The notes beneath the pieces are model-generated. The model saw only the letters and a program-made list of their open reading frames with translations, was not told the origin of the DNA and searched no databases. The position numbers and the translations under genes were made by a program. Shown here in pieces: positions 13,763-18,137 of a stretch of DNA of 32,000 nt (the first letter of the stretch is position 1; the number at the start of each line of letters is the position of its first letter). Source of the stretch: Halogeometricum borinquense DSM 11551 (GTDB lineage Archaea; Halobacteriota; Halobacteria; Halobacteriales; Haloferacaceae). The stretch lies in contig NC_014729.1 of NCBI RefSeq assembly GCF_000172995.2, forward strand, positions 150,001 to 182,000. The letters run 5' to 3'.

Positions 13763-13987
13763 TCAGATTCGATCCAGTAGCCAGAGAACGATCAGGACGA
13801 GAATCACGACACCGAGAAGTGGCTGGAGGGGACCGAGAAGGTGCGTAACGAAGCCGACGACATCGCCGACGATTTTGAGGACGAGCCAAATCACGACGAG
13901 GACGAGGATCAGTTTCAGAAGGTCTTCCACGTCGATTCCGCCGCGCGTTCCGGGGAACATAGGAGCCACGTCATCCTCGAACTGCAA
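13763..13987 (-). CDS. small hydrophobic protein, about 2 TM helices (function unknown)
   Basis: 74 aa, MQFEDDVAPMFPGTRGGIDVEDLLKLILVLVVIWLVLKIVGDVVGFVTHLLGPLQPLLGVVILVLIVLWLLDRI. An alternative start is ATG 13960. It lies 81 nt downstream of the toxin-like cassette on the same strand. Confidence 0.55.
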   Translation of the reverse strand: MQFEDDVAPMFPGTRGGIDVEDLLKLILVLVVIWLVLKIVGDVVGFVTHLLGPLQPLLGVVILVLIVLWLLDRI

Positions 13988-14068
13988 GTGTCTTGCGGGG
14001 AGCCACTTCAGATACGCCGAACCGGAAACAGCAGAGATAGGATCCAGTCGAATACTCGTGACGGCGTT

Positions 14069-15034
14069 CTATCCGAGCAGTGGCGTATGGTTGCCGTCGC
14101 GTTTGTGGACTTCGGGATACATCTCGAAGTGGTCGTAACGGCGGGAATCCCGGAACTTCCCGAAGCCGACGACGTGGAATTCCTCGGGCGGGACGACGCC
14201 CATCTTCAGGAAGCAGTCTCGGACCTGACAGCGCAGGTGGTGATCGAGATATGCCGGGAATTCATCGAACGATTCGGGTGCGTACGGGAGCAGTGACAGA
14301 CGGGCATCAGCCTGGTGAGTGAACGGTGAGTCGGCTTCATCGACCTCGTGTTTACCCAGTCGATTCGGATAGCCGATGTGGAGTCCGGAAACACCAGTAA
14401 TCGTCAGGTTTGTTGTGAGGTCCTCGCGAGTGACGATAGCTGCAAGATCGTCTCCGAAGGCTTTCCAACGGCTGAGCGTCTCGTCGCTGAGTTCCGAAAC
14501 GGGCTGGACTTCGGCACTTTCCTCAAGATCGAACCCGTGGGCAGTCGCCAGTGCTTGGGCGCGCTCTGCGACATCTTCACCGACGGCTTCTAAGCCGAGA
14601 TAGATCTCTGGTTCGTAGACGACTGCATCCGGTTTGCGGACGCCTGAGGGGAGTTCTCGAGGTCGCTCGGTGTCGTCGTGGTGGCTGCGGAGTTGCCTGT
14701 AGAGCGCTCCAAAGTACCGCTTGAATTCTGCCGGTGACAAGTCCGCGATGGCCCGGCGCACTGCATCCACGTACGCCGGATTCTCTATATGTTCGACGGT
14801 GTCGTACCCCCGCTGGGCGAATACGTAATACTTCGCGTAGCGTCGCGCTTGATTATTGTATTCGTTCTCCTCGGAGGTACGGCGATTGGCATCGTCTGCG
14901 TACGCATCACATTGGTGGTACGGGATATCTCCTGAATTCTTGTCAATAGTCAATTCATGCTCTGAATCAAGGTTATCTGTAATATACACCTTAACATAAT
15001 TCTCGTCTTCACCTTCGATAGTGGATTCCATCAT
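14069..15034 (-). CDS. unknown-family acidic protein, partner 2 of the cassette (candidate immunity/accessory protein), paralog of 15613..16647
   Basis: 321 aa. Its ATG overlaps the stop of the upstream orphan gene (tcat at 15031-15034, i.e. ATGA). It shares blocks with the 344-aa paralog: NQARRYAKYYVFAQRGYDT vs NQARRFAKYWVYRKRGYDT, and HHLRCQVRDCFLKMGVVPPEEFHVVGFG vs HLLCQIRDCYLTMGIAPPEQFRILGHG. Confidence 0.8.
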   Translation of the reverse strand: MMESTIEGEDENYVKVYITDNLDSEHELTIDKNSGDIPYHQCDAYADDANRRTSEENEYNNQARRYAKYYVFAQRGYDTVEHIENPAYVDAVRRAIADLSPAEFKRYFGALYRQLRSHHDDTERPRELPSGVRKPDAVVYEPEIYLGLEAVGEDVAERAQALATAHGFDLEESAEVQPVSELSDETLSRWKAFGDDLAAIVTREDLTTNLTITGVSGLHIGYPNRLGKHEVDEADSPFTHQADARLSLLPYAPESFDEFPAYLDHHLRCQVRDCFLKMGVVPPEEFHVVGFGKFRDSRRYDHFEMYPEVHKRDGNHTPLLG

Positions 15035-15564
15035 TGACCACCTCCACTATACGGGTCAGAACCACCATGATCGTTCCTTGCCTCGATGAACTCTTGATAC
15101 ATCTCGGCCATTTCGTAGTACATCTGCTCTAGTTTGTCGGCTTCGCCACCGGGACGATTATTCATCATTGTCCCGACAAACTCTCTGGAAACGGTTTGGG
15201 CAATGGAGGTAACGCCCCCTATAAACGCGGCTGCGCCAGTCGCTTCTGGACTCCCAGTCATGGCACCGATACCGAGGCCGACACCTACGCCGGTCGCCCC
15301 CTTCATGCTGGCACCTTGCCAATCGAAGTCTTCGGGTGCGCCCGGCGAGGCTTCCAAGAGCGTTCCCATCATCTGCTCTTGGCGGTCTTCGATGTTCTTG
15401 ATATTCGTCTTGTGGGTCTCGATACTCTCATCGTGCTCGCTGACTTGCTGTTGGAGGTCTTCGACCGCTCCGTACAGCATTCCGTCATCGGCTTCTGCGG
15501 GCATCCGCTGAACGTGCACGTCTGAGTGCTCCATGCGATGCACGCCGATTTTCCCGCCTTGCAT
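15031..15564 (-). CDS. orphan toxin-like C-terminal module: conserved junction peptide plus a glycine-zipper/hydrophobic C-terminal domain. It lacks the DUF4157 domain.
   Basis: 177 aa. The first 22 residues, MQGGKIGVHRMEHSDVHVQRMP, are identical to residues 268-289 of the 429-aa protein (65-bp DNA repeat). The rest is unrelated and contains GATGVGVGLGIGAMTGSPEATGAAAFIGGVTSIA. An in-frame TAG lies 3 codons upstream of the ATG. Confidence 0.72.
   Translation of the reverse strand: MQGGKIGVHRMEHSDVHVQRMPAEADDGMLYGAVEDLQQQVSEHDESIETHKTNIKNIEDRQEQMMGTLLEASPGAPEDFDWQGASMKGATGVGVGLGIGAMTGSPEATGAAAFIGGVTSIAQTVSREFVGTMMNNRPGGEADKLEQMYYEMAEMYQEFIEARNDHGGSDPYSGGGQ
15500..15564. repeat. 65-bp direct repeat, copy 1 (junction of the orphan module)
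   Basis: ggcatccgctgaacgtgcacgtctgagtgctccatgcgatgcacgccgattttcccGccttgcat. It matches 17068-17132 at 64/65 positions. The single difference is at 15556 vs 17124 and is a synonymous Gly codon. Confidence 0.95.
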
Positions 15565-15612
15565 TGCGTGCTAGCGGACCCCTCGAATACTGCGGAATAA
15601 CTTCATGGCCGG

Positions 15613-16647
15613 TCAGGCCTTGGTTTGAACGTTTTTGTTAGCGGGCTCGTGTTCGTAGGCACCTTCGGGTGTGTTCTCTACGTACCACGTGTCAATCTCG
15701 GCGTTGGGGTCGAAGTATTCATCGTAGATGTCGTAGCTGGCGTATAACCCCGTGGCTTCGTGGCGACCGTGGCCGAGGATACGGAACTGCTCAGGTGGTG
15801 CGATTCCCATAGTGAGGTAGCAATCCCGAATCTGGCACAGCAGATGTCTGGCGACTTGGGCCTGCAGTTCGGTAATCGAGTCCGGCTCGAAGGGGAAGAT
15901 TTCGATGCGGGCGGCCGGGTCACGACCAAGGTCAGGTTGGTCTCCCCATTGGGTATGGTACTCGCCCGGCGGGTCATCCCAGTGTACATGAATACCCGAA
16001 GTAGCTTCCAGTAGGAGTCCCTCGCTGAGGCTTGGGAGTGAATCAGAGTCCCGGTCGGATGCCTCTGCGATTAGTTCTTTGAAGGTCGGAACGTACTCTG
16101 CTCCAACCAGGGATTCTCCGCCAACGCCGACAGACTTGCCGACCAGTTCCATCAGTTTGGGATCCGCAAGGAGATCAGCCGCGATTGTCCCCAGAGTCTC
16201 GTCTTCAAGGCCAACGTAGATGTCTTTCTGATAGACTGTTCCACCGCCCTGTTCGGGAACGCCCTCGGGCATTTCGACCGGCGAGTCAGCAGTTCCATTG
16301 ATACTCTGGAAGTGCTGATAAAAGTCGCCTAAATGGGTTTCCGCAGTTTCGGGTTCCAGTGGTGTCAGAGCAATTGCGGCTGCTATGATCCGATCTGGGT
16401 TCTCCGTTGGGGGAATCGTGTCGTATCCGCGCTTGCGGTACACCCAGTACTTCGCAAAGCGGCGAGCCTGATTGACGTGGATGTTTCCGGCTCTTGTCCG
16501 CTCACTCGGGTCATCCGGGTAGCCATCCTGTTCGTGGTAGGTGATTTCGCCATCGAAGTTGACAGAAATCCCATGACTCACTTCGTTATTATCAATAACT
16601 CTCAGTCCGACACCACCATCATCTTCCCCGCCAAGAACTGCTCTCAT
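15613..16647 (-). CDS. unknown-family acidic protein, partner 1 of the cassette (candidate immunity/accessory protein), paralog of 14069..15034
   Basis: 344 aa. Its ATG overlaps the stop of the DUF4157 gene (tcat at 16644-16647). Conserved blocks are shared with the 321-aa paralog at both termini, and the middle is variable and acidic. Confidence 0.82.
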   Translation of the reverse strand: MRAVLGGEDDGGVGLRVIDNNEVSHGISVNFDGEITYHEQDGYPDDPSERTRAGNIHVNQARRFAKYWVYRKRGYDTIPPTENPDRIIAAAIALTPLEPETAETHLGDFYQHFQSINGTADSPVEMPEGVPEQGGGTVYQKDIYVGLEDETLGTIAADLLADPKLMELVGKSVGVGGESLVGAEYVPTFKELIAEASDRDSDSLPSLSEGLLLEATSGIHVHWDDPPGEYHTQWGDQPDLGRDPAARIEIFPFEPDSITELQAQVARHLLCQIRDCYLTMGIAPPEQFRILGHGRHEATGLYASYDIYDEYFDPNAEIDTWYVENTPEGAYEHEPANKNVQTKA

Positions 16648-17933
16648 TTGCTCACCTCATCAGCAGAAGGGACTCTCTCTGGCCGGTCTCCCGACCCAGT
16701 CCCATCAGACACTTCTTGGGCAACCCGTCTGGCTTCGTCGAGCCATGTTTCTGGTGGGTCCATTTCAGCGAGTTGGCCCTTCCACGAGTCCGGGAAGTTG
16801 GCCTCGGCGAGTCGGTCTTGGAAGTTGCTCTCTTTGAATTGCTGTTGCGCGTTGTTTTTCGCGGCGCGTACGCCTTTGACGCCCGGAATGATGTTTGCGT
16901 AAGCCGCCATTTGAGCTTTGAACCCTTCATAGGCAACTTCGTGGCCGTCAATATCATCCCAGTTTTCCCGGATCTCCTGCAACTGCTCGCCTTCCTCCAG
17001 CATCTTCGGAATCATCATCTGACTGGCCACCAATGCAGTTGCACCGCCAAGAACGGTTTCTGCGCCAGGCATCCGCTGAACGTGCACGTCTGAGTGCTCC
17101 ATGCGATGCACGCCGATTTTCCCACCTTGCATCACGCGCTGGGCGGTTTCTTCGGCTTCCCGTTCCAAGCGTGGGTCAGGATCAATCTCTAACTCGCCTT
17201 CTTGGGGAAGCATCGACACCGCGCCGCCCGTTTGCTGGCGCACGTGTGCTAACTCGTGGGCGAGAATATGCTGGCCTTCAGCACTCGATGGATCGTACTC
17301 GCCGTGGTTGAACGCGATGTGATTGCCGACGGTAAACGCGCGGGCGTTGATATCCTCGCAAGCTTTCGCGGCCGATGGACCCGTGTGGACGCGTACATCG
17401 CCCAGATTGTCGCCCATCCGATCTTCCATCGCGCGCTGGATGCTCGTGTCGAGTTGCTGGCCGGGCGAGGAAATCACGTCTCGCACTGAGTCGGGCACGT
17501 TCGCGTCACCAGCCTTGCTTGCTTCGTGATGCGCGCCGCGACTGCGCTGGACGGATTTAGCGTTCCGGCGTTCGATGTCCTTTGGGACTTCCGCGGGCCG
17601 TTCTTTCTGACGCTGGCGGAACGCGCGCATGTCGCGTGGCTTGCCCATCGTATCGACGGTCATGCCTTCGTCGGCCCACTGCCGAACTTGATCTGCGCCG
17701 TGTTTCTTGGCCAGTCGCTGAATCTTCGTATCCAGCCCATCCATGTAGATCTCTACCCCGAAGCGAGACTCACACTCTTGGGGTGTTAGCGAACCACCGC
17801 CACCACGACTCTGATTTCGATTCGAGCCTCCCGTCAGCTCTTGAATAGACGGAACGGACGAGGACTCTTTGCTCGGAGTCGTCCGTTCGTTCGCAGACCG
17901 AAATCTCATTCTTACTGCAAACTTGATAGCCAT
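16644..17933 (-). CDS. DUF4157 (zincin-like HExxH metallopeptidase / pre-toxin) domain protein with a variable C-terminal domain; candidate polymorphic toxin
   Basis: 429 aa. Residues about 150-234, GQQLDTSIQRAMEDRMGDNLGDVRVHTGPSAAKACEDINARAFTVGNHIAFNHGEYDPSSAEGQHILAHELAHVRQQ, match the DUF4157 consensus as I recall it (L....R..ME..fG.dfs.VRvHt...A......A.AfT.G..I.F..g.y.P....G..LLAHEL.HV.QQ). The start is ambiguous. TTATATA at 17936-17942 (minus strand) and a TT at -10/-11 fit a leaderless start at the second ATG (17909, MRFRS...) at least as well as 17933. Confidence 0.85.
   Translation of the reverse strand: MAIKFAVRMRFRSANERTTPSKESSSVPSIQELTGGSNRNQSRGGGGSLTPQECESRFGVEIYMDGLDTKIQRLAKKHGADQVRQWADEGMTVDTMGKPRDMRAFRQRQKERPAEVPKDIERRNAKSVQRSRGAHHEASKAGDANVPDSVRDVISSPGQQLDTSIQRAMEDRMGDNLGDVRVHTGPSAAKACEDINARAFTVGNHIAFNHGEYDPSSAEGQHILAHELAHVRQQTGGAVSMLPQEGELEIDPDPRLEREAEETAQRVMQGGKIGVHRMEHSDVHVQRMPGAETVLGGATALVASQMMIPKMLEEGEQLQEIRENWDDIDGHEVAYEGFKAQMAAYANIIPGVKGVRAAKNNAQQQFKESNFQDRLAEANFPDSWKGQLAEMDPPETWLDEARRVAQEVSDGTGSGDRPERVPSADEVSK
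17068..17132. repeat. 65-bp direct repeat, copy 2 (internal to the 429-aa gene, encoding M268-M288 and the first two bases of the P289 codon)
   Basis: See copy 1. It marks the boundary between the conserved N-terminal part and the variable C-terminal domain. Confidence 0.95.
17232..17486 (-). other. DUF4157 zincin domain segment within the 429-aa protein (HELAH encoded at 17244-17258)
   Basis: Coordinates come from a residue count of the ORF. cacgagttagcacac (HELAH) was read on the minus strand at 17258..17244. Confidence 0.8.
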
Positions 17934-17935
17934 CC

Positions 17936-17947
17936 TATATAATTATT
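17936..17947 (-). promoter_or_regulatory. TATA-like box upstream of the DUF4157 gene
   Basis: The minus strand reads AATAATTATATAGG-ATG. The box lies about 27-33 nt upstream of the second in-frame ATG (17909). The whole 17934-18137 intergenic region is AT-rich and is shared with the divergent SPFH gene. Confidence 0.4.
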
Positions 17948-18137
17948 CGTTCCTCGGCTTCGTGGTGTGCAAATATGGGCGACGGATCGGCGTGGTTACC
18001 GGTCATCTCAGATATTCGCAGCCAAATATCGCTAAAAGATGATTCCAGGTGTTTGTGTTTTTCTTGAATCGGGGTACTGAACAATTCCATGTGAAAATGA
18101 GACGTACGCTTAATGTCGTCGGGACTAAAATACGGGT

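Follow-up and report, generated by a model that had tools for sequence, protein, structure and literature searches.

DUF7958 proteins as probable immunity partners of contractile injection system toxins at a chromosomal locus of Halogeometricum borinquense

Contact-dependent killing by archaea was demonstrated only in 2024, and the immunity proteins involved are still annotated as hypothetical proteins or domains of unknown function (DUF). Experimental evidence was obtained in Halogeometricum borinquense, which kills Haloferax volcanii by contact through a membrane-bound contractile injection system (CIS) encoded on plasmid pHBOR03 (Zachs et al. 2024, Sci Adv, PMC11566945). Secretion of five DUF4157 proteins, among them Hbor_01880, requires an intact CIS sheath. 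Four proteins (Hbor_38740, Hbor_38760, Hbor_02990, and Hbor_38900) proved toxic, in that they could not be expressed in H. volcanii unless the gene directly downstream was co-expressed (PMC11566945). A toxin-immunity system is therefore already known, and described experimentally, in this strain. At the level of gene architecture, the closest precedent is the class of PVC-metallopeptidase (DUF4157) polymorphic toxins, defined by a conserved N-terminal module, a junction, variable C-termini, an immunity gene directly downstream, and orphan cassettes that share the junction (Zhang et al. 2012, Biol Direct, PMC3482391). H. borinquense was already listed there with PVC-type toxins of variable C-termini.

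Here, we examine a stretch of 32,000 nucleotides (nt; hereafter, the window), which matches assign to the 2.82-Mb chromosome of H. borinquense DSM 11551. It contains Hbor_01880, an orphan toxin cassette, and two genes, named here paralogs A and B, that encode diverged members of family DUF7958. The evidence presented below makes it probable that both are cognate cytoplasmic immunity proteins, with A serving the full toxin Hbor_01880 and B serving the orphan cassette. A preliminary description of the stretch, based on its sequence, had considered such a role along with several alternatives.

Locus identity and gene order

Four close-set open reading frames (ORFs) lie on the minus strand at 14069-17933 and encode, in transcription order, proteins of 429, 344, 177, and 321 amino acids (aa). 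The 429-aa frame (16644..17933, taken as the longest ORF) can be named with confidence, because the published forward primer for Hbor_01880 matches window positions 17744..17725 exactly; the frame is thus Hbor_01880, annotated from M64. The protein contains PF13699 (DUF4157, PVC-metallopeptidase, now termed 'eCIS_core'; E 9.6e-32) at aa 160-237, corresponding to 17223..17456 on the minus strand, and the HExxH motif of this metallopeptidase-like domain appears in the translation as HELAHVRQ. The domain is followed by a junction (pre-toxin) segment at 17068..17140 (minus strand), which encodes ..VMQGGKIGVHRMEHSDVHVQRMP, and then by the variable C-terminal domain.

The same junction peptide, MQGGKIGVHRMEHSDVHVQRMP, opens the 177-aa ORF (15031..15564, minus strand). 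At the DNA level, the two copies form a 73-nt direct repeat of 95% identity, with copy 1 at 17068-17140 and copy 2 at 15500-15572 (minus strand), the latter forming the 5' end of the short gene. Beyond the junction, the 177-aa protein consists of a coiled-coil and a Gly/Ala-zipper C-terminal domain. Domain scans of this ORF detected nothing, and both the DUF4157 domain and a leader are absent; the gene is read as an orphan toxin cassette.

Each of these two toxin genes is followed by a DUF7958 gene. Paralog A (15613..16647, minus strand; 344 aa) matches ADQ65798.1 / WP_006055579.1 exactly and corresponds to the 'closely associated downstream gene' of Hbor_01880 in the published work (PMC11566945). 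It is the presumed immunity partner of the Hbor_01880 C-terminal domain. Paralog B (14069..15034, minus strand; 321 aa), the presumed immunity protein of the orphan cassette, falls in the cluster of ADQ65796.1 and differs from that entry by one extra N-terminal Met, since the gene begins with ATGATG and GenBank places the start at the second ATG to give 320 aa. Both start codons overlap the upstream stop codon as ATGA. The 4-nt overlap and the directly downstream position that had been read as typical of immunity genes are thus present at both genes. Taken together, the locus displays the features by which polymorphic toxin-immunity systems are recognized (PMC3482391), namely an N-terminal module joined through a junction to a variable C-terminus, a coupled and co-oriented downstream gene, and an orphan cassette sharing a presumably recombinogenic junction.

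Protective activity has been reported for paralogs of these two proteins in the same strain. Mapping the primers of Table S4 (PMC11566945) onto the sequences of the loci showed that those for Hbor_38750 and Hbor_38770 delimit L075:6242-7219 and L075:8154-9017, and that the reverse primer for Hbor_38910 ends L077:620-1555. All three genes are annotated DUF7958, likewise Hbor_38730 (P0110) and the stand-alone gene Hbor_38800. Hence, three of the four experimentally protective partners belong to the same family as A and B. The toxin Hbor_38760, which is toxic on its own and rescued by its partner (PMC11566945), lacks DUF4157, and its initial 20 nt agree, apart from one mismatch, with a site inside Hbor_38720. 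These features suggest that it represents an orphan cassette like the 177-aa ORF of the window.

The DUF7958 family and its toxin partners

Paralogs A and B align from end to end in BLASTP, with 32% identity and 53% positives over 318 aa (E 6e-53), which confirms the paralogy first noticed from shared terminal motifs. Both carry a precomputed Pfam assignment to PF25858 (DUF7958); the family is absent from the Pfam copy that was scanned directly, and its name is taken from the precomputed annotation. Scans of A and B against Pfam and NCBIfam gave no match, including to known immunity superfamilies (SUKH, SuFu, and other Imm families) or to DUF1795 and DUF4123, and a PADLOC scan of all four proteins matched no defence-system model. 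The earlier statement that no domain of known function could be recognized therefore holds, with the family now identified as a Pfam DUF. A literature search found no paper naming DUF7958 or PF25858.

The family is small and taxonomically confined. A search of 5.8 billion proteins returned 183 homologs; every named match came from Halobacteria, and PF25858 was precomputed for all 120 homologs among the matches listed. A profile search of 1.84 billion representatives recovered only 192 clusters at 50% identity. In a 30-sequence alignment, the best-conserved columns are NQARR[FY]AKY, CQ[IV]RDC..MG..PPE, and G.G, which are the N- and C-terminal motifs quoted in the preliminary description. The variable center described there is equally evident across 119 members: pairwise identity averages 47% over the N-core (1-118) and 43% over the C-core (253-312) but drops to 26% over the middle (119-252). 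A and B retain all invariant family residues. Neither contains a transmembrane or other hydrophobic segment, and their isoelectric points are 4.4-4.8, so that both are soluble and presumably cytoplasmic.

Several members depart from this layout. Short forms of about 235 aa (P0243, P0250, and P0260) have hardly any middle segment, and their NQARR motif is altered. Long forms of 750-800 aa (P0249 and P0264) carry a helical-repeat domain of about 480 aa at the N-terminus, and the middle of P0204 contains an acidic insert of low complexity that exceeds 300 aa. P0146 joins DUF7958 to a membrane/TPR-like N-terminus whose composition is non-halophilic; this fusion may reflect a chimeric assembly.

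AlphaFold2 yielded confident models for both paralogs, with a predicted local distance difference test score (pLDDT) of 82.7 and a predicted template modeling score (pTM) of 0.80 for A, and 90.0 and 0.81 for B. The two models share one order of elements. An N-terminal sheet of four strands is followed by three helices, then by a middle made up of strand, helix, helix, and hairpin, a long C-terminal helix that bears CQ[IV]RD, and a short last helix. The variable center is predicted to be folded, not disordered. Foldseek comparison of the models with the PDB gave no match (best E 0.53 and 0.15 for the two models, TM score ≤0.15), and PDB sequence searches with single sequences and with the family profile found no relative.

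Genomic context was assessed in 74 loci from species-representative genomes, scanned with hidden Markov models of the window's DUF4157+junction segment and of paralog A; neighborhood counts refer to the 120 full-length members with upstream DNA available. Most loci are arrays in which DUF4157 and DUF7958 genes alternate on one strand. The directly upstream ORF is DUF4157-positive for 99 of the 120 members. A further 20 adjoin an upstream ORF without a DUF4157 match, most of these being orphan cassettes with the junction motif (..RMGTDVHVQR..) at their start, and one member has no upstream ORF. With 119 of 120 members following a DUF4157 gene or an adjacent upstream ORF, homologs are not commonly found away from toxin or junction-peptide genes, a point on which the preliminary description had made its interpretation depend. 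The first in-frame start lies -11 to +14 nt from the upstream stop in 118 of 119 pairs, and 33 of these 119 pairs show the 4-nt overlap seen in the window. The junction motif [VI]H[VI]QR is common to nearly all upstream genes. Since a sheath or neighboring CIS gene occurs within 6 kb in only 2 of the 74 loci, satellite positions such as that of the chromosomal locus examined here predominate.

Two further observations concern gene distribution. Stand-alone DUF7958 genes, with no upstream toxin or cassette, occur at Hbor_38800 (L075:10541-11539, minus strand) and L064:10998-11999 (minus strand). The former lies inside the CIS cluster, head-to-tail with a ParA/ArsA-like ATPase gene (L075:9438-10403). 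Such genes may encode 'orphan immunity' proteins or have another role. In Natronobiforma cellulositropha JCM 31939, at least 12 separate loci were found (L003, L004, L006, L008-L010, L026, L036, L041, L045, L047, and L058), many of them at the ends of contigs; this points to a large expansion of the alternating array, with repeated junctions breaking the assembly.

Upstream proteins extend 107-235 aa past the junction, and BLAST grouping of these C-termini gave 17 clusters, with sizes of 50, 17, 14, 9, 7, 5, 5, and 3 plus nine singletons. The end of the 177-aa cassette falls in the largest (cluster 0), in which a coiled-coil precedes a Gly/Ala-rich small-xxx-small zipper carried by 49 of its 50 members. 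The end of Hbor_01880 lies in cluster 1, which hhalign relates to every other cluster with a probability of 0.3% at most, and to cluster 0 with 0.3%. The preliminary description had stated that the two partners are homologous while the C-terminal domains upstream of them are not, and this separation is borne out. Six of the eight multi-member clusters share a layout of coiled-coil, Gly/Ala-zipper, and acidic tail, from which clusters 1 and 2 differ. The six Gly-zipper clusters are weakly linked by hhalign, with some pairs reaching about 91% probability, possibly through composition. Cluster 2 is unlinked to cluster 1 and has weak links to clusters 0 (59%) and 4 (45%). A common distant homology of all toxin ends was considered and finds no support, given the isolation of cluster 1. 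The zipper layout, as read from the sequences, would fit the cell-lysis phenotype reported in prey.

Toxin ends and partners appear to have diversified together. Similarity among toxin ends tracks similarity among DUF7958 proteins (Mantel r 0.78, reached by 0 of 999 permutations), a signal that co-inheritance of adjacent genes is also expected to give. The variable middle had been proposed as the determinant of specificity. This idea receives no specific support, as Spearman correlations of the three regions (the two cores and the middle) with toxin similarity are 0.36, 0.36, and 0.40, and partial correlations are equal; the middle tracks the toxin end no better than the cores do, and its proposed role in specificity is hypothetical.

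Base composition sets the cluster apart from its surroundings. GC content is 55-58% across 14001-18000 and 61-66% in the flanks, which is consistent with a horizontally acquired island. The flanking genes are of housekeeping type and encode XPD-like helicase, P450, LigT-like, Band 7, TauE, and UvrB proteins. Paralog B is closely followed, also on the minus strand, by a 74-aa hydrophobic ORF (13763-13987) containing …LILVLVVIWLVLKIV…LQPLLGVVILVLIVLWLL; a draft assembly calls a 65-aa gene at this place (L078:8688-8885).

Proposed immunity role and competing explanations

The observations above can be assembled into a working model. The minus-strand cluster at 14.07-17.93 kb would be a polymorphic toxin locus serving the T6SS-like (type VI secretion system-like) CIS encoded on pHBOR03. 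Hbor_01880 would combine an N-terminal leader, DUF4157, the conserved junction, and a variable C-terminal domain ahead of partner A, and the orphan cassette would place the junction and a Gly-zipper domain ahead of partner B. DUF7958 is envisaged as a soluble, acidic, cytoplasmic immunity protein made in step with its toxin by translational coupling. By binding the cognate C-terminal domain in the cytoplasm, where toxin injected by sister cells through the CIS would also arrive, it could protect both producer and sister cells. The scaffold itself would be single, with the N-terminal β-sheet and three helices packed against the C-terminal helices and a variable folded insert between them, and would have diverged alongside the toxin ends. 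Through recombination at the 73-nt junction repeat, the orphan toxin and immunity cassette could replace the expressed one.

A more ambitious version of this model holds that a previously unseen fold serves as a near-universal modular immunity scaffold for haloarchaeal CIS toxins. The N+C core would dock the junction peptide, while the size-variable insert neutralizes unrelated ends, and the protein might also act as a holdase that keeps Gly-zipper toxins soluble until CIS loading. We consider this extended version possible but doubtful.

The start codon of Hbor_01880 bears on how the published toxicity assay is read. GenBank and the published expression construct begin at M64 (17744), and one draft assembly predicts a 391-aa protein. 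Homologs in other genomes and in strain G3I44 (P0127) open with a conserved M[GR]FRS motif; it corresponds to M9 (17909), which is the probable true start. The forward primer for Hbor_38900 (ATGGCTATCAAGTTTGCA) matches window 17933..17916 exactly. Because the construct began at M64, the 'non-toxic' Hbor_01880 protein lacked about 55 conserved N-terminal residues. The homolog P0127 (WP_239524397.1), from another H. borinquense strain, also shows a rearrangement. A deletion corresponding to window positions of about 16480-17100 joins the junction (..VMQGGKIGV) in frame to about residue 57 of the paralog-A homolog (QNIHVNQARRF..), with loss of the toxin end and of the partner's N-terminal sheet. 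The event may have arisen by microhomology (IGVH / NIHV).

Several points weigh against the immunity interpretation. Hbor_01880 was not toxic in H. volcanii (PMC11566945), so the partner of paralog A may lack toxic activity toward that host; the version tested started at M64, without the conserved N-terminus. The published rescue assays relied on cytoplasmic co-expression only, which demonstrates neutralization without separating immunity from chaperoning (PMC11566945). The fourth validated partner, Hbor_03000, as well as its toxin Hbor_02990, was not found through primer-derived termini in the sequences compared. Moreover, plain co-inheritance of adjacent genes would also produce the co-variation of toxin ends and partners. 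The immunity reading of the preliminary description is upheld in part. Gene position and the reported rescue by DUF7958 paralogs of the same strain speak for it (PMC11566945), and its distinction from chaperoning is less certain.

That distinction defines the first and main one of three rival explanations. Instead of conferring immunity, or besides doing so, DUF7958 might act as a chaperone or adaptor whose conserved N+C core recognizes a feature common to all cargo, for example, the junction peptide, keeps the Gly-zipper soluble, and hands the cargo to the CIS, with neutralization as a by-product. The core is indeed conserved whatever the toxin type (47% and 43% identity, compared with 26% for the middle), DUF7958 exceeds the usual size of immunity proteins, its toxin ends are unrelated, and the junction peptide is retained in every cassette, orphans included. 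The hydrophobic zipper on most toxin ends would also need shielding in the cytoplasm, and the rescue assays suit either function (PMC11566945). However, orphan cassettes keep their partner although the leader and DUF4157, the portions presumed to mediate loading, are missing from them, and some members stand alone, with no toxin (Hbor_38800 and L064:10998-11999). The proteins secreted in a CIS-dependent manner did not include DUF7958 members (PMC11566945), and Pfam and PDB comparisons revealed no similarity to known T6SS chaperone families. On balance, we judge a primarily chaperoning role unlikely.

Decay of the locus could account for some of the same data. Hbor_01880 and A would then be inactive and the orphan cassette and B silent, as stockpiled or decaying remnants, and B, if expressed, would provide only 'orphan immunity' against toxins of other strains. 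The lack of toxicity in H. volcanii (PMC11566945), the absence of DUF4157 and a leader from the orphan, and the P0127 deletion of the toxin end in another H. borinquense strain all agree with this scenario. Nonetheless, all four ORFs are intact, A and B keep the invariant family residues, Hbor_01880 is produced and secreted, and Hbor_38760, the analogous orphan, has a toxic effect that its partner relieves (PMC11566945), which renders decay improbable. An enzymatic function appears more improbable still. DUF7958 would in that case reverse or prevent a toxin-induced modification, or process the toxin, through H38, Q40, D45, R50, E56, Q60, R62, R63, C271, Q272, R274, and D275; such invariant or near-invariant polar residues are unusually numerous for an immunity protein. 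Yet no enzyme family or fold was matched in Pfam, NCBIfam, PDB sequences, or Foldseek, the NQARR motif is changed in the short forms, and most partner toxins look membrane-active, not enzymatic.

Cognate immunity by DUF7958 thus remains the explanation that we favor, and it has practical consequences. A DUF4157 gene followed by a DUF7958 gene provides a simple genomic marker of a CIS toxin cassette, with which repertoires and orphan cassettes can be cataloged across Halobacteria.

Comparison with known toxin-immunity and chaperone systems

T6SS effector chaperones (Eag/DUF1795 and Tap/Tec DUF4123) are soluble cytoplasmic proteins encoded beside their effectors, and Eag proteins shield hydrophobic effector segments. 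They usually precede the effector and do not neutralize it, whereas DUF7958 comes after the toxin and its paralogs rescue toxicity; no homology between them was found. A parallel in mode of action may be the type VII secretion system toxin EsxX of Staphylococcus aureus. According to the abstract of the report on it (PMC12744356), EsxX has a Gly-zipper, endangers the cell from the cytoplasmic side, and is neutralized by a soluble protein encoded nearby, as proposed here for DUF7958. The two systems differ in secretion machinery, domain of life, and protein families, and the likeness extends to that abstract and the motif content of the toxin ends.

The Imm-SUKH and Imm-SuFu superfamilies (Zhang et al. 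2011, NAR, PMC3113570) offer a precedent for the family as a whole, since in each, one homologous scaffold serves a wide range of toxin domains that are unrelated to one another. This precedent removes an objection raised in the preliminary description, according to which homologous partners are hard to reconcile with non-homologous toxins. DUF7958 differs from both superfamilies in that it shows no detected sequence or fold similarity to them, is about twice their size, and is confined to Halobacteria. The comparison raises a structural question, namely how one soluble scaffold without a PDB match neutralizes several unrelated, mostly membrane-active toxin domains.

Among DUF4157 polymorphic toxins, many PVC-type members have no adjacent immunity gene (PMC3482391), in contrast to the haloarchaeal set described here, in which a partner from a single family is near-universal. 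In the literature searched, DUF7958 does not appear as the single-family partner of essentially all these toxins, and no description was found of its fold, for which the PDB has no match, of its association with unrelated toxin ends, or of the orphan cassette with B. The text of PMC11566945 likewise makes no mention of the partners forming one family, of the orphan cassette with B, or of a structure or mechanism.

The nearest relatives of the window locus remain the CIS toxin-immunity pairs of H. borinquense itself. The published rescue tests concern other pairs, and the window toxin Hbor_01880 was non-toxic in H. volcanii (PMC11566945). The locus is a chromosomal satellite of the published plasmid-borne system, with one pair whose toxin was inactive against the sole prey tried, plus one orphan cassette. 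Strain, gene family, and gene order are nevertheless the same in both settings, and the tested partners Hbor_38750, Hbor_38770, and Hbor_38910 are DUF7958 proteins like A and B.

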